64,000 nt of DNA from an uncultured Planctomycetales bacterium (GTDB lineage Bacteria; Omnitrophota; Gorgyraeia; Zapsychrales; JAHFFX01), in contig CAYJRN010000005.1 in NCBI GenBank assembly GCA_964372915.1, positions 11,329-75,328 on the forward strand. The letters are read 5' to 3'. Both the position numbers and the translations under genes were made by a program. Below the pieces are notes generated by a model. The model saw only the letters and a program-made list of their open reading frames with translations. It was not told where the DNA came from and made no database searches. Positions 6,134 to 23,170 of this stretch are shown in pieces. The first letter of the stretch is position 1. Every line of letters starts with the position of its first letter.

Positions 6134-7702
6134 TCAAGAATTAATCTTCACCATCTCCTCGATCACCCGACGGCATTGCTGCGTGGGGCACTCGAGATAC
6201 CCCAACGACAGGCGCCGGTCAATAATATCTTCCGGCTTTTGGGCCATCTCGACCTTGAGCGCATAAACTACCTGCGCCTTGATCGCCAAAGAACACGAGC
6301 ACAGCCGCGCCTTCAAAAAAGGATCACCGCGGGTCAAACGCAAAACATCCGTGTACCGCGTTCCATACTTGTCCATGAGCATTTGGACGGTTTCGGTATC
6401 CAGATCATACTCCAGAGCCGCCTCTTCCGGTCTTTGAACAAAGGTGCCGCTGCCGTACAGAGGATACTCGGTCGATTCCTCGGAAGATTTCACTTTGAGG
6501 ACGCGGTTCACCGTCTCTTGCGCGATTCGCCGGTAGGTTGTGTACTTGCCGCCCATCACAAAAAGAATTCCGCCGAATGTTTCTAGAATGGCGTGCCGGC
6601 GCGAAATCTTGGAAGGCGCCCCCTCCTCCTTGACCAACGGCCTTAACCCCGCAAACGTGGTAATGATATTTTCTTTTTTAAAACCCACCGCCGGGAAGAC
6701 GCGATTGGCCTCGTTCAAAAGATAATTGATATCCTCTTCTTGCACCGAAACGCCGTCGGGACTGCCCGAATAATCCGTGTCGGTCGTGCCGATCAAGGAA
6801 TTTCCCATCCAGGGAATGACGAAAAAGACCCGGTTGTCTTTTTGAGAGGTCATCAAAAGCGCGTGCGTGGAAATTTTTCCTTTATAAACGATATGGATCC
6901 CCTTGGTCAAGCGCACTTTTTCCATGGACCGATGATTTTCCATCTTTAAAAGCGCGTTGGTCCAAGGGCCGCCGGCGCAGACCACTTTTTTCGCGCGCGC
7001 CTCAAACGTCTTGCCGCTTAAAACGTCCTTGGCCGCCACACCCACGGCCTTGCCGTTAATTTTGATAAATGAAACAACCTCAATATAGTTGGCAACCACC
7101 GCTCCCTTCCCTCGGGCGGAAAGAACATTCTCCAGAACGAGCCTGGCGTCATCCATTTGAGCATCGTAATACGTGAGGCCTCCCGCCAAACCTTCCTTCT
7201 TGATCCCCGGCTCCAGGCGCAGGATTTCCTCAACACTCAAAGAGCGGTGAGATTGTATTTTATACGGACCGCTTAAGACGTCATACAAAAAAACTCCCAG
7301 TCTCATCATCCACAACGGCCTTCGATCGGTTTTATAAACGGGAATGATGAGGCCCAAGGGCTTGACCAGATGGGGAACATTTTTGAGCTGAATAAAACGC
7401 TCTTTGAGGGATTCCCGGACGAGATCAAATTCGAGATTCTCAAGATAACGGATCCCGCCGTGGATGAGCTTGGTGGATTTGCTCGAGGTGCCGGAGGCAA
7501 AATCGTTCTTCTCAAGAAGGGTAACCTTAAGACCCCGCCCGGCGGCGACGTTGGCGATCGCGGCCCCGTTAATGCCTCCGCCGATAATCAAAAGATCGAA
7601 TGAGCCTTTGGTAAACTGCGTAAAATCCCTCAACATGTCCTTATTGACCTTTCTTCGATTAACGCCGTATGCGGAAGTCAATATTACCTTTTCTCTCCCC
7701 AA
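6134..7702 (-). CDS. glpD: FAD-dependent glycerol-3-phosphate dehydrogenase
   Basis: 522 aa; N-terminal FAD fold LLIIGGGINGAAIA, GlpA/GlpD family length and C-terminal domain. Confidence 0.85.
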   Translation of the reverse strand: MGREKVILTSAYGVNRRKVNKDMLRDFTQFTKGSFDLLIIGGGINGAAIANVAAGRGLKVTLLEKNDFASGTSSKSTKLIHGGIRYLENLEFDLVRESLKERFIQLKNVPHLVKPLGLIIPVYKTDRRPLWMMRLGVFLYDVLSGPYKIQSHRSLSVEEILRLEPGIKKEGLAGGLTYYDAQMDDARLVLENVLSARGKGAVVANYIEVVSFIKINGKAVGVAAKDVLSGKTFEARAKKVVCAGGPWTNALLKMENHRSMEKVRLTKGIHIVYKGKISTHALLMTSQKDNRVFFVIPWMGNSLIGTTDTDYSGSPDGVSVQEEDINYLLNEANRVFPAVGFKKENIITTFAGLRPLVKEEGAPSKISRRHAILETFGGILFVMGGKYTTYRRIAQETVNRVLKVKSSEESTEYPLYGSGTFVQRPEEAALEYDLDTETVQMLMDKYGTRYTDVLRLTRGDPFLKARLCSCSLAIKAQVVYALKVEMAQKPEDIIDRRLSLGYLECPTQQCRRVIEEMVKINS

Positions 7703-7716
7703 AGCTGGAGAAAAAC

Positions 7717-9240
7717 TTACGGCTTAAAGGAAGAAAAGGTTAATAAGGTCCTTTGGACAGCCCGTTGCCAGCCGGCATACAGCCCTTCCCGCGTCTTAGC
7801 GGCCATCGACGGAAAGAAGATCCTGTCGGTTTCTTGAAGTCTTTTGAAATCCGCAGCGCCTTTCCATAATCCAACGCTGACTCCGGCTAAAATGGCCGCG
7901 CCCCGGACCGTGGATTCGATACCCCGAGGGCGAACGATTTTTGCGCCCAGCACATCCGCTTGGAACTGCATCAAAAAATTATTCTTGCAAGCGCCCCCAT
8001 CCACCTTCAACTCCTTCACCCGATGATGGAATTCCTCTTGCATCAGGTCAAAAACATCCCGCGTTTGATAGGCAATCGATTCCAGCGCCGCCCGGATTAT
8101 ATGTCGCACGTTTGAGCCCCGGGTCAGCCCCGCGATAAGGCCGCGGGCCGCAGAGTCCCAGTAAGGCGCGCCCAAACCCGTGAACGCGGGAACAAAATAA
8201 ACGCCTTGCGTGTCGGAAACGCCGCGAATCGCGCGTTCAGACTCCGACGAGGTTTTGAGGACTTTTAATTCATCGCGCAACCACTGTATCGCCGCCCCGG
8301 CCACAAAAACCGAACCTTCCAACGCATAAACGGGATTTCCTTTTTCATCACAGGCAATGGTTGAAAGCAATCCTTTTTTGGAATAAATCAGTTTCTTGCC
8401 TGTATTTAAAACCATAAAACATCCCGTCCCATACGTATTCTTAACGGTGCCGGATGTAAAACAGCCTTGTCCGTACAGAGCCGCCTGCTGATCACCCATC
8501 ACGGCCGTAATCGGAATGCCGGAAGGCAATCCGGCGACACCGTCGGCGGTCTTGCCGAAGGAACTGCCGGATTTTTGTACGCACGGCAAGACCGCCGACG
8601 GGACATTCAAAATCCTCAAAATTTCCTCATCCCATTTGAGCGTGCGGATATTAAAAAGCATTGTGCGCGAGGCATTGGTCATATCGGTCGCGTGAAAACG
8701 CCCGCCGGTCAGTTTCCAAATGAGCCAACTGTCGATGGTGCCGAAGGCAATCTCGCCTTTAAGGGCTCGGTCCCGTAAACCGGGGACACGATCCAAAATC
8801 CATTTGATTTTGGTACCGGAAAAATAAGGATCAATGACCAATCCGGTTTTAAGACGCACTGTGGCGGCATGGCGCGCCAGGCCTTTGCAGATATCGGCTG
8901 TCCGACGGCATTGCCAGACGATCGCGCGATGGACAGGTTTTGAGGTTTTGCGGTCCCAGAGGACGGTTGTTTCCCGTTGATTGGTAATTCCGATGGCGAG
9001 AATCTTGGAGGGATTGATCTTGGCTGCTGCGACGGCTTTGCGGATTACAGTTTCAACCGAACGCCAGATCTCCTCGGCATCGTGCTCGACCCAGCCGGGC
9101 TTGGGATAATACTGCTTGAACTCGCGGGTGGCACTTCCTGCGATGCGGCCCTTGGAATCAAAAACATAGGCCCTTGAACCCGTGGTCCCTTGATCGAGGG
9201 CGAGGATATACTGTTTTTTCAAGGCAAATTTTAATTTCAA
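7717..9240 (-). CDS. glpK: glycerol kinase
   Basis: 507 aa; FGGY kinase, ILALDQGTTGSRAYVFD N-terminus typical of GlpK. Confidence 0.92.
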   Translation of the reverse strand: MKLKFALKKQYILALDQGTTGSRAYVFDSKGRIAGSATREFKQYYPKPGWVEHDAEEIWRSVETVIRKAVAAAKINPSKILAIGITNQRETTVLWDRKTSKPVHRAIVWQCRRTADICKGLARHAATVRLKTGLVIDPYFSGTKIKWILDRVPGLRDRALKGEIAFGTIDSWLIWKLTGGRFHATDMTNASRTMLFNIRTLKWDEEILRILNVPSAVLPCVQKSGSSFGKTADGVAGLPSGIPITAVMGDQQAALYGQGCFTSGTVKNTYGTGCFMVLNTGKKLIYSKKGLLSTIACDEKGNPVYALEGSVFVAGAAIQWLRDELKVLKTSSESERAIRGVSDTQGVYFVPAFTGLGAPYWDSAARGLIAGLTRGSNVRHIIRAALESIAYQTRDVFDLMQEEFHHRVKELKVDGGACKNNFLMQFQADVLGAKIVRPRGIESTVRGAAILAGVSVGLWKGAADFKRLQETDRIFFPSMAAKTREGLYAGWQRAVQRTLLTFSSFKP

Positions 9241-10676
9241 AATTTTGTTTCCGCCAGCAGATACTGATGAATCCCTTCGGCGGCCGCGCGCCCCTCGGCA
9301 ATGGCCCAGACCACGAGCGACTGTCCGCGCGCCATGTCCCCGGCGACAAAAACCCCGGGAACACCGGTCATCTTGTTCTTATCCTGCTTGACGTTGCCCC
9401 GCGCGTCGAGCTCTACTCCCAATTCTTCCAGCATGCCTTTTTTGACCGGGCCCAAAAAACCCATGGCCAGAAGCACCAGGTCGCATTCCACTTCGAATTC
9501 CGAACCCGGGATTTCCTTCATCGCGCTTCTGCCGGTCACGGGATCCTGGGGGCCGAATTCCAATCGTACGGCGTGAAGTTTTTTGAGCTTTCCGTTTTCA
9601 CCGCTGAATTTTTTGGTCAGGATGGAATAATCCTGCTCAACGCCTTCTTCGTGAGAACTCGATTTTCTTTGGACAAAGGCCCATTGGGGCCAGGGATTAT
9701 CGAAGGATCGATCCTTGGGGGGCTGGGGCAGCAATTCAAATTGTTTCACCCACACAGCCCCCTGACGATTGGACGTTCCTAAACAGTCGGAGCCCGTATC
9801 GCCTCCGCCTAAAATGACAACTCTTTTTGCCTGGGCCGTAATACTAGCCTTGGGATCGACAGGCTGCCCCAAATTTCGACGGTTCTGCTGCGGCAAGAAG
9901 ATCATGGCCTGGTAAATGCCCTCGAGCTCACGCCCGGGAATCGGTAAATCGCGCCAATCTTCCGCTCCGCCGCACAAAACCAGCGCGTCATATTTTTTCC
10001 GCAATTCTTTCGCGGAAATGTTGACACCGACGTGAGCGCCCGTCTTCAATTCAACGCCTTCCTGATGCATTCTCTTGACGCGCCGCTCCACAATCCACTT
10101 TTCCAGCTTGAAATCCGGAATTCCTAAGGTGAGAAGTCCGCCAATCACCTCATTTTTTTCATAGACCGTCACCTTGTGGCCCATCTTATTGAGCTCATCC
10201 GCGCACGCTAAGCCCGCGGGACCGGAACCGACGACGGCAACTTTTTTGCCCGTGCGGTGTTTGGGAGGATGGGGCTTTACCCATCCGTGTTCATAAGCCT
10301 TGTCAATGATCGCGACTTCGATATTTTTGATCGTCACCGCCGGCTGGTTGATGGCCAACACACAGGCGTTCTCGCAGGGGGCCGGACAGATACGACCGGT
10401 GAACTCCGGAAAATTATTCGTTTTGTGAAGCCGTTCAATCGCTTCCTGCCAGCGATCATTAAAGACGAGATCATTCCAGTCGGGAATGATATTGCCGATA
10501 GGACACCCGGACTGACAAAACGGAACGCCGCAATCCATGCAGCGTCCGCCTTGTTTTTTTAACTCTTCTTCCGGCAAAAGAACTGAAAATTCTTTCCAGT
10601 GCTTTAATCGTTCTTCAACGGGTTCTTTCTTGAATTCCTTACGATCATATTTCATGAACCCTTTAATATCACCCAC
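9237..10676 (-). CDS. gltD: glutamate synthase small (NADPH) subunit
   Basis: 479 aa; N-terminal 4Fe-4S Cys cluster plus two Rossmann FAD/NAD motifs (VAVVGSGPAG); GTG start with GGAG SD. Confidence 0.9.
   Translation of the reverse strand: MGDIKGFMKYDRKEFKKEPVEERLKHWKEFSVLLPEEELKKQGGRCMDCGVPFCQSGCPIGNIIPDWNDLVFNDRWQEAIERLHKTNNFPEFTGRICPAPCENACVLAINQPAVTIKNIEVAIIDKAYEHGWVKPHPPKHRTGKKVAVVGSGPAGLACADELNKMGHKVTVYEKNEVIGGLLTLGIPDFKLEKWIVERRVKRMHQEGVELKTGAHVGVNISAKELRKKYDALVLCGGAEDWRDLPIPGRELEGIYQAMIFLPQQNRRNLGQPVDPKASITAQAKRVVILGGGDTGSDCLGTSNRQGAVWVKQFELLPQPPKDRSFDNPWPQWAFVQRKSSSHEEGVEQDYSILTKKFSGENGKLKKLHAVRLEFGPQDPVTGRSAMKEIPGSEFEVECDLVLLAMGFLGPVKKGMLEELGVELDARGNVKQDKNKMTGVPGVFVAGDMARGQSLVVWAIAEGRAAAEGIHQYLLAETKF
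10651..10673. repeat. 23-bp direct repeat copy A (inside the first codons of gltD)
   Basis: TTCATGAACCCTTTAATATCACC; 20/20 + 2/3 identical to 11188-11210. Confidence 0.9.
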
Positions 10677-10697
10677 AATACATCTCCATATTACTTT

Positions 10698-10858
10698 TAG
10701 GCATCGACCCGGCGTTCTTCATGTGTCCCAATATTTACCTGGGGTACATCAGCCGGGGTTAACCTCTGAAAATCTTCCCTTGTAATACCGCTAAGAAAGC
10801 TCTGGATATGCGTAACGGCATCGAGAATATGCTTTAAATAAATTTCATTACTTTTCAT
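10698..10858 (-). pseudogene. hepT: truncated HepT/DUF86 (HEPN) toxin fragment
   Basis: 53-codon ORF MKSNEIYLKHILDAVTHIQSFLSGITREDFQ... matches the DUF86 N-terminus then terminates early. Its start overlaps the mntA stop by 11 nt, as in HepT/MntA pairs. Confidence 0.55.
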
Positions 10859-11171
10859 AAACGACTTTCATGGAATGCAAAATATCATTTTTGAGATACG
10901 GACTAAGACTGTCCATGGTCAGTAAATCGACTTTCCTGTGAAATATCTTCTGCATCTCGCTTTCCGCATGAATTAAATCAATCAAGCTTTTTGTCTGATT
11001 GGCGTCAAACTTAATGAGCACATCAAGGTCACTTCTTCCTTTCTGCTGTTTTCTGACAAACGACCCAAACAACGCCATAAAAGTAATACCGTTGGCCTCG
11101 CAAAGATTTTGAATTTTTTCTATGATAGACTTTTTTCTAAATTGAATCGGCAGGGAATTGATCTTAACCAT
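10848..11171 (-). CDS. mntA: MntA-type minimal nucleotidyltransferase (antitoxin of HEPN/MNT module)
   Basis: 107 aa; GSxxRGxxxxxSDxD motif (LFGSFVRKQQKGRSDLDVLI); GGAGGT SD 5 nt upstream. Confidence 0.8.
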   Translation of the reverse strand: MVKINSLPIQFRKKSIIEKIQNLCEANGITFMALFGSFVRKQQKGRSDLDVLIKFDANQTKSLIDLIHAESEMQKIFHRKVDLLTMDSLSPYLKNDILHSMKVVYEK

Positions 11172-11187
11172 TTTCTACCTCCAATGC

Positions 11188-11210
11188 TTCATGAACCCTT
11201 TAATATCGCC
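11188..11210. repeat. 23-bp direct repeat copy B (gltD 5'-end remnant upstream of mntA RBS)
   Basis: TTCATGAACCCTTTAATATCGCC; reproduces the GDIKGFMK coding segment of gltD out of context. Confidence 0.9.
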
Positions 11211-11243
11211 ATGTAGATTTATCATCCCTTCTTCCATGAATCT

Positions 11244-11504
11244 TTATTTAAAAGGAATATAAACTTGAAATGCCGCAATGATCGTTAAAACTATTGTCAA
11301 AACCACTAAAACCCATGTCAACTGAACCAATCTTTCATTAGCTGTATTTTGCGTTTTGATATACCGTCGCTGAATTTCTGCAATAACAACAGAAAATTTA
11401 TCAGTGGAATGTGTCCATTCGCCTATCCGCTCATGAACATACTGCTTGAGCCAATCTTCCAGTTCTTTATCTGTATATTCTGTAAAATCCTTACGAGTCC
11501 CCAC
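11244..11504 (-). CDS. hypothetical small tail-anchored membrane protein
   Basis: 86 aa; charged N-terminal 60 aa then a single C-terminal TM helix (LTWVLVVLTIVLTIIAAF); AT-rich codon usage. Confidence 0.45.
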   Translation of the reverse strand: MGTRKDFTEYTDKELEDWLKQYVHERIGEWTHSTDKFSVVIAEIQRRYIKTQNTANERLVQLTWVLVVLTIVLTIIAAFQVYIPFK

Positions 11505-11578
11505 AACCTATCCTCCAGACCATTTAAACACTTACTCCCGTCATCAGCACTTCTTGAAAAAAGCTCGCCGGGAATGCT

Positions 11579-11794
11579 TTATCGTTTTATATCTTCCGTT
11601 AGCGCCATCTCAACTTGAAATTCTTTGTGTCCGCCAAACAATTTGGCCGCGTCGAGGAATTCAATCCCCACCGGTTTACCTGCGGTATCATAATCAACTA
11701 TGACACCTTCAGCAATTTCGTCGCTTTCTTCAATTTTGGATTTTCGCAATCGAATATATAAAACATCTGCCTTAGAAGCATAGCTTATTTTCAT
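11579..11794 (-). CDS. DUF2283 family protein
   Basis: 71 aa; MKISYASKADVLYIRL...DYDTAGKPVGIEFLDA matches the DUF2283 pattern. Confidence 0.75.
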   Translation of the reverse strand: MKISYASKADVLYIRLRKSKIEESDEIAEGVIVDYDTAGKPVGIEFLDAAKLFGGHKEFQVEMALTEDIKR

Positions 11795-11800
11795 AAATTC

Positions 11801-12013
11801 TTAACCGGCAATCGTTTCAAAAGCCACTTTCAAGTGATCCAGCTTGGCCACTTGAAAATTCAATTTTTCAAAACCCAGCACGTGTCCTTTTTTGTCTTTC
11901 ATAAGAACAACCTCTTCCGCGGTTTCTTCACAAACATACTCACGCTTGGGTTCGCCAAACCAAACCGTCAGGGTATTGCCGGTACGATCATAAAATACCT
12001 TTACTTGGGCCAT
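11801..12013 (-). CDS. DUF2283 family protein (second, divergent copy)
   Basis: 70 aa; ...GNTLTVWFGE...DKKGHVLGFEKLN resembles DUF2283; overlaps upstream gene by 13 nt. Confidence 0.6.
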   Translation of the reverse strand: MAQVKVFYDRTGNTLTVWFGEPKREYVCEETAEEVVLMKDKKGHVLGFEKLNFQVAKLDHLKVAFETIAG

Positions 12014-12330
12014 ATTTTTTCTCCTGCTTTGATAATATCCGTTAAATAAGCTGTTATAAGAAATCCTTCTCCGTTAAGCCGTTTGCTCACAGCGCATACC
12101 CACTTGCCTTTATGGTAAGTCTTATAAAACAAATAAACAGCCGAATCTGTTTTACTCCTTCGGATTTCTTCGGGGTTCTCAAGAGTAGCCTTGACTTCTT
12201 TCTCATGTCCAGCCATCAACGGATGCTTAATTCCAACAATAATCTCCCAATAAGAACGGCTGACATGCACACGAAAACCAAGCGGCGTTAAAACATCAAA
12301 CCGTACACCTTTCCCATTCTGTTTTTCCAT
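12001..12330 (-). CDS. DUF4258-like small protein (putative toxin partner of DUF2283)
   Basis: 109 aa; LENPEEI... and C-terminal hydrophobic stretch ending ITAY resemble DUF4258; start codon 2 nt after gltB stop. Confidence 0.5.
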   Translation of the reverse strand: MEKQNGKGVRFDVLTPLGFRVHVSRSYWEIIVGIKHPLMAGHEKEVKATLENPEEIRRSKTDSAVYLFYKTYHKGKWVCAVSKRLNGEGFLITAYLTDIIKAGEKIWPK

Positions 12331-12332
12331 CT

Positions 12333-16907
<4,575 letters not shown>

Positions 16908-16960
16908 CGAAATTTCTCGATATAAATGTTCAACTTTCTTATTTTAGTTAAATCTTATCC

Positions 16961-16988
16961 ATTTTAACGATTCTAAGGAAATGTTCAA
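16961..16988 (-). promoter_or_regulatory. candidate sigma70 promoter of gltB (TTGAAC-N16-TAAAAT on minus strand)
   Basis: -35 complement at 16983-16988, -10 complement at 16961-16966, about 54-nt leader to gltB ATG. Confidence 0.45.
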
Positions 16989-17007
16989 TTGAAAAGTTAC
17001 ATGAAAA

Positions 17008-17072
17008 GTCACATGTCACAATGTCACAATGTCACAAAAAACACTTCTACGGTGACGTGTGACATTGTGACC
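17008..17072. promoter_or_regulatory. array of TGTCACA heptamers: four direct copies plus an inverted pair (14-bp arms, 21-bp spacer)
   Basis: GTCACATGTCACAATGTCACAATGTCACA ...21 nt... TGTGACATTGTGAC; between nadE stop and gltB promoter. Confidence 0.6.
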
Positions 17073-17075
17073 CCA

Positions 17076-18752
17076 TCAAAATTCCTTATATTTATTCGTA
17101 ATCGGCAACCTCCAATCTTTGCCGAAAGCCCTGGGGGTGATTTTAACCCCCGGCGGTGATTGCCGGCGTTTGTATTCGCTCCGGTCGACCATTGTGATAA
17201 CCTTCTTAACGATGTCGCCCGTAAATTTCTTCTTACTGATATCAACAAAAGACCGGTGTTCCTCGACATAGGCCTTAAGCATCTCATCCAAGTCCTCATA
17301 CGGCGGCAAAGAATCCTGATCGGTCTGGTTTTCCTTAAGCTCCGCCGTGGGCGCGCGAGTAAAAACACTTTCCGGAATCAAGCGCCCGCCCTCTTCATTG
17401 TTCCTCATCTTCGCCAATTCATAGACTTTCGTCTTGGGGACATCTTTAATGACCGCGAAACCTCCGGACATATCACCATAAAGCGTGCAATACCCGACGG
17501 CAATTTCGCTTTTATTGCCCGTCGTCAACACCAGCCACTCGAATTTATTAGAGAAGCCCATCAAGAGGTTCCCGCGGATACGGGCCTGCAGATTCTCTTC
17601 GGCCACGTTGCTGGGATATCCGGCAAAAGGCTCTTTCAAAGTCGCAAGATACGCGTTGAAGATTTCTTCGATCGGAACTTCCAGATATTTTATCCCTAAG
17701 TTCTGGGCGACACTTTTGGCATCAGACCGCGTTCCTTTCGAAGAGAACCGTGAGGGCATCGAAATCCCCACCACATTCTCCCTGCCAATGGCATCGCTGG
17801 CAATGAGAGCGACCAGCGAGGAATCAATGCCGCCGCTTAAACCAACCAGAACTTTTTTAAAACCGTTTTTCTTAACATAATCGCGCGTGCCCAAAACCAG
17901 GGCTCGATAAACACCCTCCAATCGAGTCAATGGCTTGGCTTTCTGTGCCGTGAGTGGAATTTTCGCGGCAGTACCCGCTCTTAAAGAAAGAATGGCCGTC
18001 TTCGCGTTCTTTTTCTTGGCCCGCGCTATTTCCAGATCCGCGACCAAAAGGTCCTCGTCAAACTCTTTGCCTGCGGCGAGCAATCGGCCTTGGGGGTCAA
18101 AAATGAGGCTCGCCCCGTCGAAAACCAATTCATCCTGACCGCCCACAATGTTGGCATAGCAAATAAAAGATTTGGTTTCAAGCGCGCGGCTTTTAAGCAT
18201 TTTCTTGCGAACTTCGAGTTTACCCTCGTAATAAGGAGAGGCGGAAATATTAATAAGGATTCGCGCGCCGGCCTTGGCCTGGCGCAGATACAACCCGTCG
18301 TGGATCCAGATGTCTTCGCAGATATTGACGCCAAATATTGTTTTGCCAAGGGCGAAAACTTTTTCGTTTTTTCCGGGCGTGAAATAGCGTTTCTCGTCAA
18401 ACACGCCGTAGTTGGGCAATTGCTCTTTATGACAAACGTCTTTAAGTTTCCCGTCGTGAAGAATAGCCGCGGCATTGAAGAGCTCGCCTTTTTTTCCTTT
18501 GTCGACAAATCCAATGATGGCTGTGAGATCAGAGGTCTTAGGTGCCAAAGATTTAAGCGCCGCGAGATTGTCGTGGACAAAGTGTTGTTTATACAAAAGG
18601 TCTTCCGGCGGATAACCGCAGACGGCGAGTTCCGGAAAGATCACAAGGTCGGCTTGCACCTTGCGCGCCTTTTCCAGATACCCGGCGATTTTCTTGGCGT
18701 TGCCGGTTAAATCGCCGACTGTTGGATTGATTTGGGCGATGGATATTCTCAT
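17076..18752 (-). CDS. nadE: glutamine-dependent NAD+ synthetase
   Basis: 558 aa; N-terminal CN-hydrolase (nitrilase) glutaminase domain plus C-terminal NAD synthetase PP-loop SGGIDSS. Confidence 0.9.
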   Translation of the reverse strand: MRISIAQINPTVGDLTGNAKKIAGYLEKARKVQADLVIFPELAVCGYPPEDLLYKQHFVHDNLAALKSLAPKTSDLTAIIGFVDKGKKGELFNAAAILHDGKLKDVCHKEQLPNYGVFDEKRYFTPGKNEKVFALGKTIFGVNICEDIWIHDGLYLRQAKAGARILINISASPYYEGKLEVRKKMLKSRALETKSFICYANIVGGQDELVFDGASLIFDPQGRLLAAGKEFDEDLLVADLEIARAKKKNAKTAILSLRAGTAAKIPLTAQKAKPLTRLEGVYRALVLGTRDYVKKNGFKKVLVGLSGGIDSSLVALIASDAIGRENVVGISMPSRFSSKGTRSDAKSVAQNLGIKYLEVPIEEIFNAYLATLKEPFAGYPSNVAEENLQARIRGNLLMGFSNKFEWLVLTTGNKSEIAVGYCTLYGDMSGGFAVIKDVPKTKVYELAKMRNNEEGGRLIPESVFTRAPTAELKENQTDQDSLPPYEDLDEMLKAYVEEHRSFVDISKKKFTGDIVKKVITMVDRSEYKRRQSPPGVKITPRAFGKDWRLPITNKYKEF

Positions 18753-19368: not shown

Positions 19369-21546
19369 TTAATTCATCAGGAGCATTTCCGCGTATGACG
19401 GCAGCGGCCACTTGTCCGCCGGAACCAAATTCTCCAGCGCGTCCACGGCCTCACGAAGTTTCAACATACCCGCGTTGGTCTTGGCGGCATCGTGCTTGGC
19501 GATCGCGGCCTCGAGCGCATCAGCGGCACCGATAGCGGCTTCCGTCAAAGCGGCGACTTGCCTTAACAGGCCCTTAGTCGCCGTCGTTTTACCGAAGGTA
19601 CCGACGATCTTGATCGTTTCCGCCAATTCTTTTTCAAACGAAAGCGCGGCTGGGATAATCTGCGTACGAGCCATCGTTGCGGCGCAGTTACCTTCGATTT
19701 GAACCATCGTCTGGTACCCGTGCTTATAAATTTCGTAGCGGGATGCGGTTTCCCGACGAGAAAGGACCCCGTGCTTTTCCAAAACGCGGATGTTTTTATC
19801 CTCTTTGAACTGTTCTAACGACTCGGGAGTCGATTTTAAATTCAAAAGACCGCGCTTTTTCGCTTCTTTCTGCCATTCCTCGATGTAGTTATCGCCGTTA
19901 TAAATGATCCGCTTGTGTTTCTTGATAATCTCCTGAAGGACTTTCTGCAAAGAGCTGTTGAAATCCTTCTTGGCTTTAACATCCGTCTCGAGCTGCGCGC
20001 AGATCTGATCCAAGGCCTCCGCCACAATCGTATTCAACACGACGTTCGGGCCCGAGGGGCTCATGTTAGAACCCACGGCGCGAAACTCGAACTTGGCGCC
20101 GGTGAAGGCAAAAGGAGAAGTTCTGTTCCTGTCGGTGGCATCACGAGGAAGGATGGGCAAAGAATCAACGCCGATATGAATAACACCGCCTTCCTTCGAG
20201 GTTTTCGGCGAACCTTTCTCAATCTGTTCGATGATATCCGTCAGCTGATCCCCAAGAAAAATCGAGATGATGGCCGGCGGAGCCTCGTTGGCCCCCAGAC
20301 GATGATCGTTGCCGGCGGTTGCCACGGACACTCTTAAGAGCCCCTGATACTCATCGACGGCTTTGATGACGGCGCAAAGCATCGTCAAGAACTTCGCGTT
20401 TTCGTGCGGGGTCTTGCCCGGATACAACCAGTTCTTGCCATCGGGCCCAACGATTGACCAGTTGTTGTGCTTGCCGGAACCGTTGACACCGGCAAAAGGC
20501 TTCTCGTGCAACAAACACGTCAAGCCGTGTTTATCGGCGGTCTGTCTCATCACTTCCATCGCAATCATGTTGTGATCAACGCCGAGATTCAGTTCTTCGA
20601 AGACCGGAGCGATTTCGTATTGGGCCGGGGAGACTTCGTTATGACGAGTCTTGGACGGAATACCCAATCTCCAAAGGGCGCGATCCAGATCTTCCATAAA
20701 GGCCATGACCCGCGGTTTGATGGCACCAAAATAATGATCTTCCTGCTGCTGATGCTTGGCAGGTTTGCGGCCAAACAAGGTACGACCCGTTTGGACCAAA
20801 TCCATACGAGCTTCGTAGTAAGCCTTATCGATGAGAAAATATTCCTGCTCGGGTCCTAAAGTCGCATACGAACGCTTGCCCTTGACATCAATGCCAAAGA
20901 GCTTGCCTAAACGCGAGGCCTGCTTGGAGAGCGCCGCCATGGAACGCAGAAGCGGTGTTTTCTTATCGAGCGCTTCCCCGTGATAACCGCAGAAGATCGT
21001 TGGGATGCAAAGCGTGGCGCATTCCGGACCTTCCTTAATAAAGGCGGGGCTGGTGGGGTCCCACGCCGTGTAACCGCGGGCTTCAAACGTCGCGCGCAAA
21101 CCGCCCGACGGGAAACTGGAGGCGTCGGGTTCGCCCTGAATCAATTCCTTGCCGGAAAATTTGAGCATCACTCCGCCTTCTGTGTCCGGAGAAATGAACG
21201 CGTCGTGCTTTTCGGCGGTCATGCCGGTCAAAGGCTGGAACCAATGGGTAAAATGGGTCGCCCCTTTGGCCAACGCCCAATTCTTCATGGCCTCGGCCAC
21301 TTCATCGGCGATATTGGGATCCAATTTGCCGCCTTCTCTAATAGTGGTACTAATCGACTGGAACGCCTTCTCTGAAAGATGCTCGCGCATGATCTTCAAA
21401 CCGAAGACATTCTCGCCATAGATGTCGGCAATCGTTTTTTTCGCTTCCCCATTGCCCGTTTCACCCCTAATGCTCTCCTTCAAATTGAAAACCGTCTGAT
21501 CAAAATCCTGCATCAGTTGCCTTCTTTTTTTGTTCACTTCATTCAT
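19369..21546 (-). CDS. glnN: glutamine synthetase type III
   Basis: 725 aa, length and domain order typical of GSIII. Confidence 0.85.
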   Translation of the reverse strand: MNEVNKKRRQLMQDFDQTVFNLKESIRGETGNGEAKKTIADIYGENVFGLKIMREHLSEKAFQSISTTIREGGKLDPNIADEVAEAMKNWALAKGATHFTHWFQPLTGMTAEKHDAFISPDTEGGVMLKFSGKELIQGEPDASSFPSGGLRATFEARGYTAWDPTSPAFIKEGPECATLCIPTIFCGYHGEALDKKTPLLRSMAALSKQASRLGKLFGIDVKGKRSYATLGPEQEYFLIDKAYYEARMDLVQTGRTLFGRKPAKHQQQEDHYFGAIKPRVMAFMEDLDRALWRLGIPSKTRHNEVSPAQYEIAPVFEELNLGVDHNMIAMEVMRQTADKHGLTCLLHEKPFAGVNGSGKHNNWSIVGPDGKNWLYPGKTPHENAKFLTMLCAVIKAVDEYQGLLRVSVATAGNDHRLGANEAPPAIISIFLGDQLTDIIEQIEKGSPKTSKEGGVIHIGVDSLPILPRDATDRNRTSPFAFTGAKFEFRAVGSNMSPSGPNVVLNTIVAEALDQICAQLETDVKAKKDFNSSLQKVLQEIIKKHKRIIYNGDNYIEEWQKEAKKRGLLNLKSTPESLEQFKEDKNIRVLEKHGVLSRRETASRYEIYKHGYQTMVQIEGNCAATMARTQIIPAALSFEKELAETIKIVGTFGKTTATKGLLRQVAALTEAAIGAADALEAAIAKHDAAKTNAGMLKLREAVDALENLVPADKWPLPSYAEMLLMN

Positions 21547-21630
21547 GCCATTCTCCTCAATTTCCTAACCTCCGCGGACTCACATCCGTGGAGGTTCCTT
21601 GTGTCTTTCGCTTACCGTTTTAAAATCCCC

Positions 21631-21674
21631 CCGCCTGTCCGCCTCGCCGAAGGCTCGCCGAGGCGGACAGGCGG
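21631..21674 (-). terminator. GC-rich hairpin after glnA (16-bp perfect stem) in glnA-glnN spacer
   Basis: CCGCCTGTCCGCCTCG ... CGAGGCGGACAGGCGG; on the minus strand followed by GGGGAUUUUAAAA. Confidence 0.5.
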
Positions 21675-21688
21675 GGCGCGAAGCGAGA

Positions 21689-23170
21689 TTAAACATCGTA
21701 ATACAGATGAAACTCGTAGGGGTGCGGCCTTAAACGGATGCTGTCGATATCGACTTCGTTCTTGTATTCAATCCACGTGTCAATCACGTCATCCGTAAAA
21801 ACGCCGCCGGCCGTCAAGAAGCCCCGATCCTTATCCAAGGCCTCCAAGGCCTGTTCCAGAGAACGAGGAACAGTTTTGATCTTCTTGGCCTCGGCCTCAG
21901 GCAACGCATAGATGTTCTTGTCAATCGGCTGACCCGGATCGATCTTGTGCTTAATGCCGTCGATGCCGGCCATAAGCATCGCCGCCATCGCCAGGTACGG
22001 GTTGCACGACGGGTCCGGCGGACGAAATTCGATTCTTTTCGCCTTTTCGCTTGCGGAATACATCGGAATGCGCACTGCCGCGGATCTATTCCTTTGCGAA
22101 TACACCAAATTCACCGGCGCTTCATAGCCGGGAACAAGACGTTTGTACGAATTCGTCGTCGGCGCCGCGAAGGCCAAAATCGCATGGGCATGCTTCAGGA
22201 GTCCGCCGATATAATGCTTGGCCATATCGCTCAAAAGCGCGTAACCTTTCTTGTCATAGAACAAGTTCTTACCGTCCTTCCAAAGACTTTGGTGGACGTG
22301 CATCCCGGAACCGTTATCCTTGAAGATGGGCTTGGGCATGAAGGTCGCCGTCATGTTATTTTTCTTGGCGATATTCTTAATCACGTACTTGTAGATCAAG
22401 AGATTATCGCACATCCTTACCAGCGGACTATAGCGGATGTCGATCTCGCACTGACCGGCGGTCGCCACCTCATGGTGATGAACCTCAACGGGAACGCCCA
22501 CCTTCCTTAACGTGAGCATAATCTCGCTACGAATATCCTGCAGCGTATCATGGGGCGGCACCGGAAAGTAGCCTTCCTTATATCGCGGTTTGTAGCCGAG
22601 ATTCGGTTTCTCGTCGCGACCGGTGTTCCATTCCCCTTCATTCGAATCGATGTAATAGTAACCGCTATTTTCCGTCTGATCGAAACGGATGTCGTTAAAG
22701 AGAAAGAACTCGGCCTCCGGCCCCCAGTAACTGATGTCCGCGATCTTCGTCGATTTTAAGTATCCGGCCGCCTTTTGCGCGATATACCGGGGATCCCGGG
22801 AATACGGATCCTTGGAAATAGGATCGTACACATCGCAGATAATGCTGAGCGTGGGCACCTGGGCAATGGGATCCACGAAAGCGGTCGTCGCATCCGGTCT
22901 AAGGATCATGTCGCTTTCGTGAATCTTCTTAAAACCGCGAATACTCGAACCGTCAAACCCAATCCCCTCCTTCCAGATGCTGGATTCGGCATCCAGATCT
23001 TCCGATGGAATTGAAAAATGCTGCCAAAGACCGGGCAGGTCGTTGAATTTGAAATCAACGACCCTGATCCCGTTCTTTTCAATCAACTTTGATACGTCTT
23101 TTACATCCTTGGGATGACCGTTTTCATCCTTTTTGGTCACCAGCGTGGTCATAGCATTCTCCCTTCTCAA
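21689..23170 (-). CDS. glnA: glutamine synthetase type I
   Basis: 493 aa; GS beta-grasp plus catalytic domain with GSGMHVHQS signature. Confidence 0.9.

Follow-up and report, generated by a model that had tools for sequence, protein, structure and literature searches.

Why should gltB and gltD, the genes for the two subunits of glutamate synthase, be held apart by an array of small genes, and did these genes arrive together? The question is raised by a 64,000-nt stretch of DNA from an uncultured bacterium of the Omnitrophota (contig CAYJRN010000005.1 of assembly GCA_964372915.1; hereafter, the window), in which gltB and gltD are separated by 1,656 nt (positions 10677–12332) carrying six co-oriented small open reading frames (ORF-A to ORF-F), collectively termed the islet. 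A preliminary description of this DNA had listed six such elements between the two genes; all of them were recovered on the minus strand at corresponding positions, and the flanking genes were verified as those of glutamate synthase. The gltB–gltD junction is likely to be a clade-specific hotspot of insertion, with the islet as its present content, the outcome of successive insertion, replacement and deletion events.

The proposal that the segment is AT-richer than its flanks and foreign was borne out by every measure of composition that was computed, and the composition of the region is not uniform. The GC content of the islet is 0.393, compared to 0.503 ± 0.025 across all 1,656-nt windows (z = −4.4), no other one being so low, and it forms the deepest and longest GC trough of the 64 kb. 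GC content at third codon positions (GC3) is 0.30–0.45 in the islet genes, against 0.56–0.64 in the flanking genes, and the tetranucleotide distance of the islet is 0.427, while the maximum among 148 other windows is 0.297. Since the islet was 100% identical on four independently assembled contigs, which come from different sequencing runs, an assembly artefact or chimera was ruled out.

Cargo at the gltB–gltD junction

The junction was surveyed in relatives, at 78 loci with both gltB and gltD, with clade assignment taken from the gltD tree. In line with the earlier statement that the two genes are normally adjacent, they lie 2–220 nt apart at 76 of these loci, and the two exceptions (L002 and L004) are close relatives. 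Cargo was observed at the junction in six of the nine lineages of one gltD clade, whereas the 26 remaining Omnitrophota lineages had none (Fisher p = 5e-5), and it is drawn from at least five different toxin–antitoxin (TA) family pairs. The same clade also holds three empty junctions (L001, L003 and L005).

The occupants change from locus to locus. The window junction carries ORF-A to ORF-F; that of L096, a HEPN gene, a nucleotidyltransferase (NTase) gene and an ORF-D homologue; that of L097, an ORF-D homologue; and that of L102/L103, a HEPN gene, an NTase gene and an ORF-C homologue. A DUF4160 plus a DUF2442 gene is present in L002, and DUF433, DUF5615/PIN, lipoprotein-like and weak SIR2-like genes are present in L004. 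The cargo sits close to both flanks: at the gltB end, it overlaps gltB by 4 nt in L002 and starts 2 nt (window), 4 nt (L096), 21 nt (L004) or, in a further islet, L098 (contig OBEQ010098721.1), 95 nt away, and at the gltD end the gap measures 20–52 nt.

With regard to individual junctions, the 255-aa product of the gene directly upstream of gltD in L004 (L004:5211–5978) matched SIR2_2 weakly (E 4e-4) and may constitute a defence-type NADase as cargo of the same junction. An element of ~200 nt, absent from the window, is 89% identical between the otherwise different gltB-junction islets of L098 and L004 (L098:3147–3346 and L004:4693–4892). It holds a 40–45-aa ORF (MFTALTVFL...CCLMFYLGKGM), possibly non-coding, and could represent a shared RNA or regulatory element, or else the scar of a recombination event. 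In the empty junctions of L003 (1456–1552) and L005 (5883–6000), a long perfect hairpin was found, GGGCCGTTTCT(A/G)TTTT...AAAA(T/C)AGAAACGGCCC, which might be an intra-operon attenuator, an element resembling repetitive extragenic palindromes (REP-like), or a preferred target or scar of cassette insertion.

Gene relics and the genes between them

Read from gltB towards gltD, the gaps that follow the six ORFs measure −13, 6, 74, 72, −11 and 20 nt, and the 74- and 72-nt gaps are occupied by gene relics. The relic between ORF-C and ORF-D (11524–11577, minus strand; 54 nt) is what is left of the 3′ end of an NTase gene, its 17 final codons plus the stop. It reads AFPASFFQEVLMTGVSV and aligns to the C-terminal residues (ASPASFLQEVLVTGVRI) of an intact NTase, which is encoded directly before the ORF-D homologue in L096 and is also present in L102/L103 and L098. 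On this alignment, the relic is the remainder of an overwritten HEPN–NTase cassette.

The relic between ORF-D and ORF-E is a former gltD start (11184–11212, minus strand; 29 nt), ATGG-CGATATTAAAGGGTTCATGAAGCAT, that is, MGDIKGFMKH with a 1-nt deletion, and it aligns with the true gltD starts located directly after ORF-D in L096 and L097. It forms the upstream copy of a direct repeat, D2 (22 of 23 positions identical, spacing 537 nt), whose downstream copy (10651–10673) lies at the present gltD start, so that the repeat brackets exactly the 537-nt NTase/HepT unit made up of ORF-E and ORF-F. No such relic is present upstream of the ORF-E homologue in L098, where homology begins at the ribosome-binding site; the relic therefore represents target DNA and not a part of the cassette. 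An origin from donor DNA was rejected on this ground and also because the relic is closer to the gltD of the window (22/23) than to that of L097 or L096. The relic start, the direct repeat and the comparison with L098 together indicate that the mntA–hepT unit was inserted in the first ~10 codons of gltD. The present gltD start is a GTG, 7 nt after a GGAG motif, and an ATG is found in all relatives examined.

The NTase relic, the old gltD start and the bracketing repeat thus record several successive events, and the idea of the islet as one acquisition did not survive their discovery. As a separate observation, the gltD start (10650–10676) differs between annotations in L093 and L081, namely an internal Met8 (472 aa) versus the GTG.

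ORF-E (10848–11171, minus strand; 107 aa) encodes a minimal nucleotidyltransferase, which matched Pfam Polbeta (6e-16, 58.9 bits) and NTP_transf_2 (5e-13, 49.8 bits), PADLOC PDC-S09 (6e-21) and the minimal NTase of PDB entry 1wot (1e-6), and which carries a GSx10DxD motif at residues 36–50 (GSFVRKQQKGRSDLD). The earlier designation as MntA-type can be kept in the sense of MntA-like, though the match to NCBIfam MntA (NF047752; 53.8 bits, E 1.5e-14) stays under the 60-bit cut-off. Its homologue in the L098 islet is 80% identical (ratio of nonsynonymous to synonymous substitution rates, dN/dS, 0.10), and a metagenome scan with ORF-E retrieved no relatives.

The start of ORF-F (10697–10858, minus strand; 53 aa) overlaps ORF-E by 11 nt, which is typical of mntA–hepT pairs. 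Its residues 1–32 align without gaps to residues 1–32 of the HepT-like protein (PF01934) of L098, with 41% identity and 72% positives (E 4e-9, pairwise BLASTP). ORF-F produced no Pfam or NCBIfam match at E ≤ 10, no PDB match and no match in an exhaustive phmmer search of 1.84 billion representatives; the Rx4-6H motif is absent from its 53 residues, and HepT sequence past residue 32 was not found in any frame before gltD. As the preliminary description had it, this is a HepT remnant: by its predicted product, ORF-F is a non-functional HepT (DUF86/HEPN) stub and not a member of the family. Because the HepT partner has been cut to 32 homologous residues without Rx4-6H, ORF-E has no toxin to neutralise locally and is, by prediction, an orphan antitoxin-like gene.

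MntA–HepT (HEPN/MNT) systems are type VII TA systems, and reportedly include SO_3165/3166 of Shewanella oneidensis and the HEPN-MNT system of Aphanizomenon. The ORF-E/ORF-F unit resembles them in its minimal NTase with GSx10DxD and in its gene order, the canonical mntA-then-hepT, with the 3′ end of the NTase gene overlapping the start of the HepT-like ORF. It differs in that the partner consists of 32 HepT-like residues devoid of the Rx4-6H catalytic motif, in that ORF-E scores slightly below the NCBIfam MntA cut-off, and in the location of the unit inside the 5′ end of gltD, with a duplicated gltD start on its flanks.

At the opposite end of the islet, ORF-A (12001–12330, minus strand; 109 aa) has its ATG 2 nt after the TAA of gltB, exactly as reported for the DUF4258-like gene. 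It matched PF14076 (DUF4258) with an E of 0.006 and 17.3 bits, for a gathering score of 25; 24 of 41 sampled family members match PF14076 individually at E < 0.01 (best, 5.8e-6), and there are at least 499 homologues at 60–80% identity, some named DUF4258 by NCBI. The AlphaFold2 (AF2) model of ORF-A has a mean predicted local distance difference test score (pLDDT) of 86, and its best PDB fold matches were a chain of a contact-dependent inhibition (CDI) toxin/immunity complex, then HigB toxins and CdiA-CT Kp342. PDB sequence searches with ORF-A and ORF-C were empty. The family-invariant residues K35, H36, R57, S59, Y69, Y95, T97 and K101 are kept, and the window protein shows L10R, R76K and P96L (YPT to YLT) at near-invariant positions (≥90% conserved in the family).

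ORF-B (11801–12013, minus strand; 70 aa) belongs to DUF2283 (PF10049; 1e-8, 35.5 bits, gathering score 23) and is 77–82% identical to the DUF2283 partners of ORF-A homologues. Compared with homologues, dN/dS was 0.19 for ORF-A and 0.10 for ORF-B. In 11 of 11 places, the ORF-A homologue is followed, with a 13-nt overlap, by a 70-aa DUF2283 gene, and the layout in the window is the same. The places fall into five contexts that are unrelated to one another. In one, the pair neighbours a Tn3 transposase, and in another, an integrase and a TrwC relaxase; it also follows pilM/pilO in a pil operon, separates transketolase (tkt) from rpiB, and occurs close to thrS and PIN/PemK genes. None of the 11 has a second DUF2283 gene directly downstream or an ORF-D homologue, and an alignment of the flanks of the A/B copies across contexts revealed no shared promoter or operator, homology ending at the two ORFs. 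Because the pairing with its 13-nt overlap recurs in five unrelated contexts without ORF-D or a second DUF2283, ORF-A/ORF-B is, as far as gene order can tell, a self-contained mobile pair. In L089 (4001–6316), such a pair lies together with an AbiEii gene and another DUF2283 between transketolase and rpiB.

ORF-A is regarded here as a divergent DUF4258-like protein and putative BECR-fold RNase-type toxin, and ORF-B as its predicted cognate antitoxin, translationally coupled to it; the two are the candidate for the only potentially complete TA pair of the islet. DUF4258 has been placed among BECR-fold RNase toxins, with its target unknown, and PF14076 overlaps Ntox49 in a family that has adjacent antitoxin genes (PMC11980606; bioRxiv 10.64898/2026.08.28.747851). 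ORF-A is similar to this family in being a small alpha/beta protein with many relatives that match PF14076, in its best fold matches, weak as they are, to CDI and HigB-type BECR toxins, and in always having a small overlapping downstream partner gene. It differs in an extra N-terminal beta-hairpin (109 aa, compared to a model of ~71 positions), in a score under the family threshold and in the order of the genes, the putative toxin gene coming first and its DUF2283 antitoxin partner second, whereas antitoxin/toxin order and MqsA fusions are given in the review (PMC11980606).

The second DUF2283 gene, ORF-C (11579–11794, minus strand; 71 aa, YuzE-like), matched PF10049 with 7e-18 and 65 bits. 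The preliminary description had spoken of two tandem DUF2283 genes; membership of the family was established for both, but they are not a tandem duplication, since ORF-C is 27% identical to ORF-B, shows no cross-match with it in tblastn and represents a separate 71-aa subfamily. Homologues of ORF-C occur in L102/L103, in the order gltB–HEPN–NTase–[C]–gltD, in the gltB islet of L098 downstream of a short (86-aa), threshold-passing DUF4258 gene, and alone between sdhA and sdhB in L100 (2501–2716). With a dN/dS of 0.06–0.08, ORF-C is in the window, by prediction, an orphan antitoxin-like gene. The wedging of such genes inside other operons (sdhA–sdhB in L100 and tkt–rpiB in L089) may be a general habit of TA-like cassettes.

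ORF-D (11244–11504, minus strand; GTG start) is the 86-aa tail-anchored membrane protein noted previously, and hydropathy analysis placed its one C-terminal transmembrane helix at residues ~59–84. Its structure model is poor (pLDDT 67, two helices), and a metagenome scan with the ORF-D alignment found no relatives. Three homologues were retrieved among 5.8 billion clusters (four clusters in all). In L096 (gltB–HEPN–NTase–[D]–gltD) and L097 ([D]–gltD), the homologue lies 20 nt upstream of gltD, and on a third contig the same 20-nt spacing separates it from a downstream gene the identity of which is not readable; L097 and the third contig end short, with further upstream content beyond the contig, and in L096 no DUF4258 or DUF2283 gene stands beside the homologue. 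The dN/dS of ORF-D was 0.17–0.32. At conserved residues, 82% of the codons are identical between ORF-D and its L097 homologue, compared to 49% for the adjacent gltD (p = 1e-6), and the corresponding values for L096 are 66% and 46% (p = 0.005); likewise, on crossing from ORF-D into gltD, nucleotide identity falls from ~0.9 to ~0.7. This pattern points to an exchange of junction content among lineages that postdates the divergence of gltD, with recombination via the conserved flanks as the probable route.

History of the islet and alternative explanations

A plausible order of events under the hotspot reading is as follows. The rare ORF-D gene would have been placed directly upstream of gltD, and a HEPN–NTase pair would then have come to lie upstream of ORF-D, in an arrangement still present in L096. 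After these two steps, and in either order, the ORF-A/B module plus ORF-C would have overwritten the HEPN–NTase pair, with the last 54 nt of the NTase left behind, and an mntA–hepT cassette would have entered the first ~10 codons of gltD with duplication of ~23–29 nt of the target. As a result of the duplication, gltD would have gained a new GTG start downstream of the cassette, its former start remaining upstream as a dead copy, and hepT would later have been cut to its 32-residue stub. In the resulting islet, ORF-A would act as a BECR-type RNase-like toxin neutralised by the DUF2283 protein ORF-B from the overlapping gene, and ORF-C and ORF-E would be orphan antitoxins under purifying selection, possibly with a protective role against cognate toxins that are encoded elsewhere or incoming. 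Compared with homologues, ORF-A to ORF-E are all under purifying selection (dN/dS 0.06–0.32).

Several points weigh against this picture. L098 holds a still larger islet after gltB, known from the gltB end only, and the hotspot is based on about ten lineages, mostly metagenome-assembled genomes or short metagenome contigs. The excess of identical codons in ORF-D over gltD could arise partly from AT-biased codon usage. The toxin and antitoxin roles are inferred from the placement of DUF4258 among BECR toxins, from fold matches and from conserved gene pairing. The score of ORF-A does not reach the gathering threshold of DUF4258, a comparison of its family with one bona fide DUF4258 protein by hhalign was insignificant (probability 3.6%), and its PDB fold matches are all weak, with E 0.03 or higher. 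Given L10R, R76K and P96L, moreover, the toxin of the window may be attenuated.

The alternatives fare less well against the same observations. That the DUF4258 gene, the two DUF2283 genes and the membrane protein gene form one new TA or defence module, obtained in a single acquisition with the mntA/hepT remnant beside it, would suit their common orientation, tight packing and low GC, but is exceedingly improbable. In none of the 11 ORF-A places is the first DUF2283 gene directly followed by a second or accompanied by an ORF-D homologue; ORF-D homologues are seen only by gltD, and in L096 without DUF4258 or DUF2283; ORF-C homologues stand alone or with a different DUF4258; and ORF-C and ORF-D are separated by what remains of an unrelated NTase gene. 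The arrangement that the preliminary description had put forward as an undescribed module thus falls apart into an ORF-A/B pair, ORF-C and ORF-D, which occur in separate contexts. A one-off horizontal acquisition at a random site in this strain, with the hotspot as a sampling coincidence, is very unlikely as well. Although few lineages are available and TA genes are also wedged at sdhA–sdhB (L100) and tkt–rpiB (L089), coincidence would have to explain six independent junctions in one clade, with at least five TA family pairs, versus none of the 26 lineages outside (p = 5e-5), together with the relics of earlier cassettes inside the islet and the lack of any other TA-like small gene in the 64-kb window.

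It is unlikely that ORF-D is a vertically inherited accessory gene of the glt operon, e.g., a membrane tether or regulator of GltD, around which TA genes accumulate. Its constant distance from gltD (20 nt in both L096 and L097, with the same spacing on the third contig), the purifying selection on it (dN/dS 0.17–0.32) and the relic gltD start directly after it in the window all fit this view; yet ORF-D is absent in the closest cargo-free relatives (L001, L003 and L005) and in L002, L004 and L102 of the same clade, has a GC3 of 0.30 compared to 0.60 for gltD, is represented by only four clusters in 5.8 billion, and shares identical codons with L097 to an extent (82% versus 49% for gltD, p = 1e-6) that suggests more recent exchange. 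Another proposal treats the junction as a dedicated capture site, where a site-directed mechanism or strong selection would put promoterless TA and defence cassettes precisely into the space that separates the gltB stop from the gltD start, at a dosage set by the nitrogen-regulated glt promoter, and where ORF-D would take part as a GltD-associated membrane factor or landing-pad marker. We consider this distinctly unlikely; if true, TA activity would be coupled to nitrogen status and loss of a cassette would be costly in an essential operon. Finally, an integron-like cassette array, i.e., a cluster of attC sites lacking an integrase (CALIN) or a sedentary integron, is scarcely credible. Sedentary chromosomal integron arrays, such as the Vibrio superintegron, are rich in TA genes, and the islet recalls them in its small, co-oriented, promoterless TA-type ORFs, presumably read from an upstream promoter, and in the turnover between relatives. 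However, integron attC sites measure 55–140 nt, and the gaps in the islet (−13 to 74 nt, the larger two being filled by relics) leave no room for them; the islet has no fitting inverted repeats, the neighbourhood of nitrogen-assimilation and glycerol genes contains no integrase, and the boundaries are instead formed by gene relics and a target duplication.

The clade-specific hotspot that we favour has counterparts in chromosomal integration hotspots and in defence or TA islands, which reportedly lie between core genes. As in those, the same core flanks enclose different cargo in related genomes, with rapid turnover, relics and atypical composition. The gltB–gltD junction differs from them in its position inside a co-directional operon, between two subunit genes of one enzyme, in a cargo of bare ORFs that abut both flanks and is confined to one small clade, and in having no associated integrase, tRNA or transposase. 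In recent studies of Omnitrophota, TA pairs including MntA were described as cargo of lateral transfer, and the gltB–gltD junction was not described there.

The components of the islet are members or near-members of known families, namely DUF4258-like/DUF2283 pairs, MntA–HepT and HEPN–MNT. Less familiar is an intra-operon integration hotspot between the subunit genes of a central nitrogen-assimilation enzyme with a readable record of overwriting, and the history of turnover at the junction is of more interest than the four-gene module proposed previously. It offers a natural example of how selfish cassettes can be carried along by housekeeping transcription with no mobility gene of their own, and of the constraints on such cargo, which has to consist of bare ORFs, be free of terminators and regenerate a start codon for the downstream gene. 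The lesson for annotation is that a tight, co-oriented array of small genes is not necessarily one system, and the set of junctions provides clean comparative material for the pairing of DUF4258 with DUF2283.

Transcription and neighbourhood of the glt operon

The preliminary description had expected the islet genes, co-oriented and tightly packed, to be expressed with glutamate synthase under nitrogen control. Orientation and packing were confirmed, the latter being too tight for internal terminators, and no terminator-like site was detected on the minus strand, the coding strand, within 10677–12332. Promoter matches in the islet did not exceed the expectation from shuffled sequences, and an Rfam search of 9000–17500 gave a single match at chance level. 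Since no terminator-like site is present, and the cargo abuts gltB and gltD with no room for regulatory DNA, the whole array is most likely read through from the glt promoter, and gltD expression would then depend on transcription through the islet. Cassettes that block gltD expression, for instance by carrying a terminator, would be selected against at this junction. Given this layout of the genes, it is plausible that the islet is expressed together with glutamate synthase and under nitrogen control.

As for the flanks, gltB (12333–16907, minus strand) encodes the large subunit of 1524 aa with the Pfam domains GATase_2, Glu_syn_central, Glu_synthase and GXGXG, and its native C-terminus (...EKIKV*) is intact and matches that of relatives. 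The 479-aa small subunit encoded by gltD (9237–10676, minus strand) matched TIGR01317 with 692 bits. The neighbourhood is a co-directional nitrogen-assimilation cluster with amt, glnA, GSIII, nadE, gltB, the islet and gltD, followed by glpK, glpD and carA. No integrase, transposase or tRNA gene was found near the islet, and no other TA-like small gene elsewhere in the window; in the PADLOC search the NTase alone was recognised, and PHROGs returned nothing useful.

Within this cluster, two glutamine synthetase genes, one of type III (725 aa) and one of type I (glnA, 493 aa), are neighbours at 19369–23170, next to amt and nadE. Downstream of the islet, the last 4 nt of gltD (9237–9240) are shared with glpK, and glpD lies 14 nt past glpK (7702–7717), so the genes for glycerol kinase and glycerol-3-phosphate dehydrogenase appear to be co-transcribed with those of glutamate synthase; in L102, a TPR protein gene takes the place of glpK after gltD. 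Lastly, in the AT-rich gltB leader (16990–17070, minus strand), TGTGACAT occurs three times in tandem (GTGACATTGTGACATTGTGACATGTGAC), after an inverted GTCACA...GTCAC element. To judge by its sequence, the TGTGACAT array looks like a CRP/FNR-type or other operator array, and it could be a nitrogen-control site of the glt operon.

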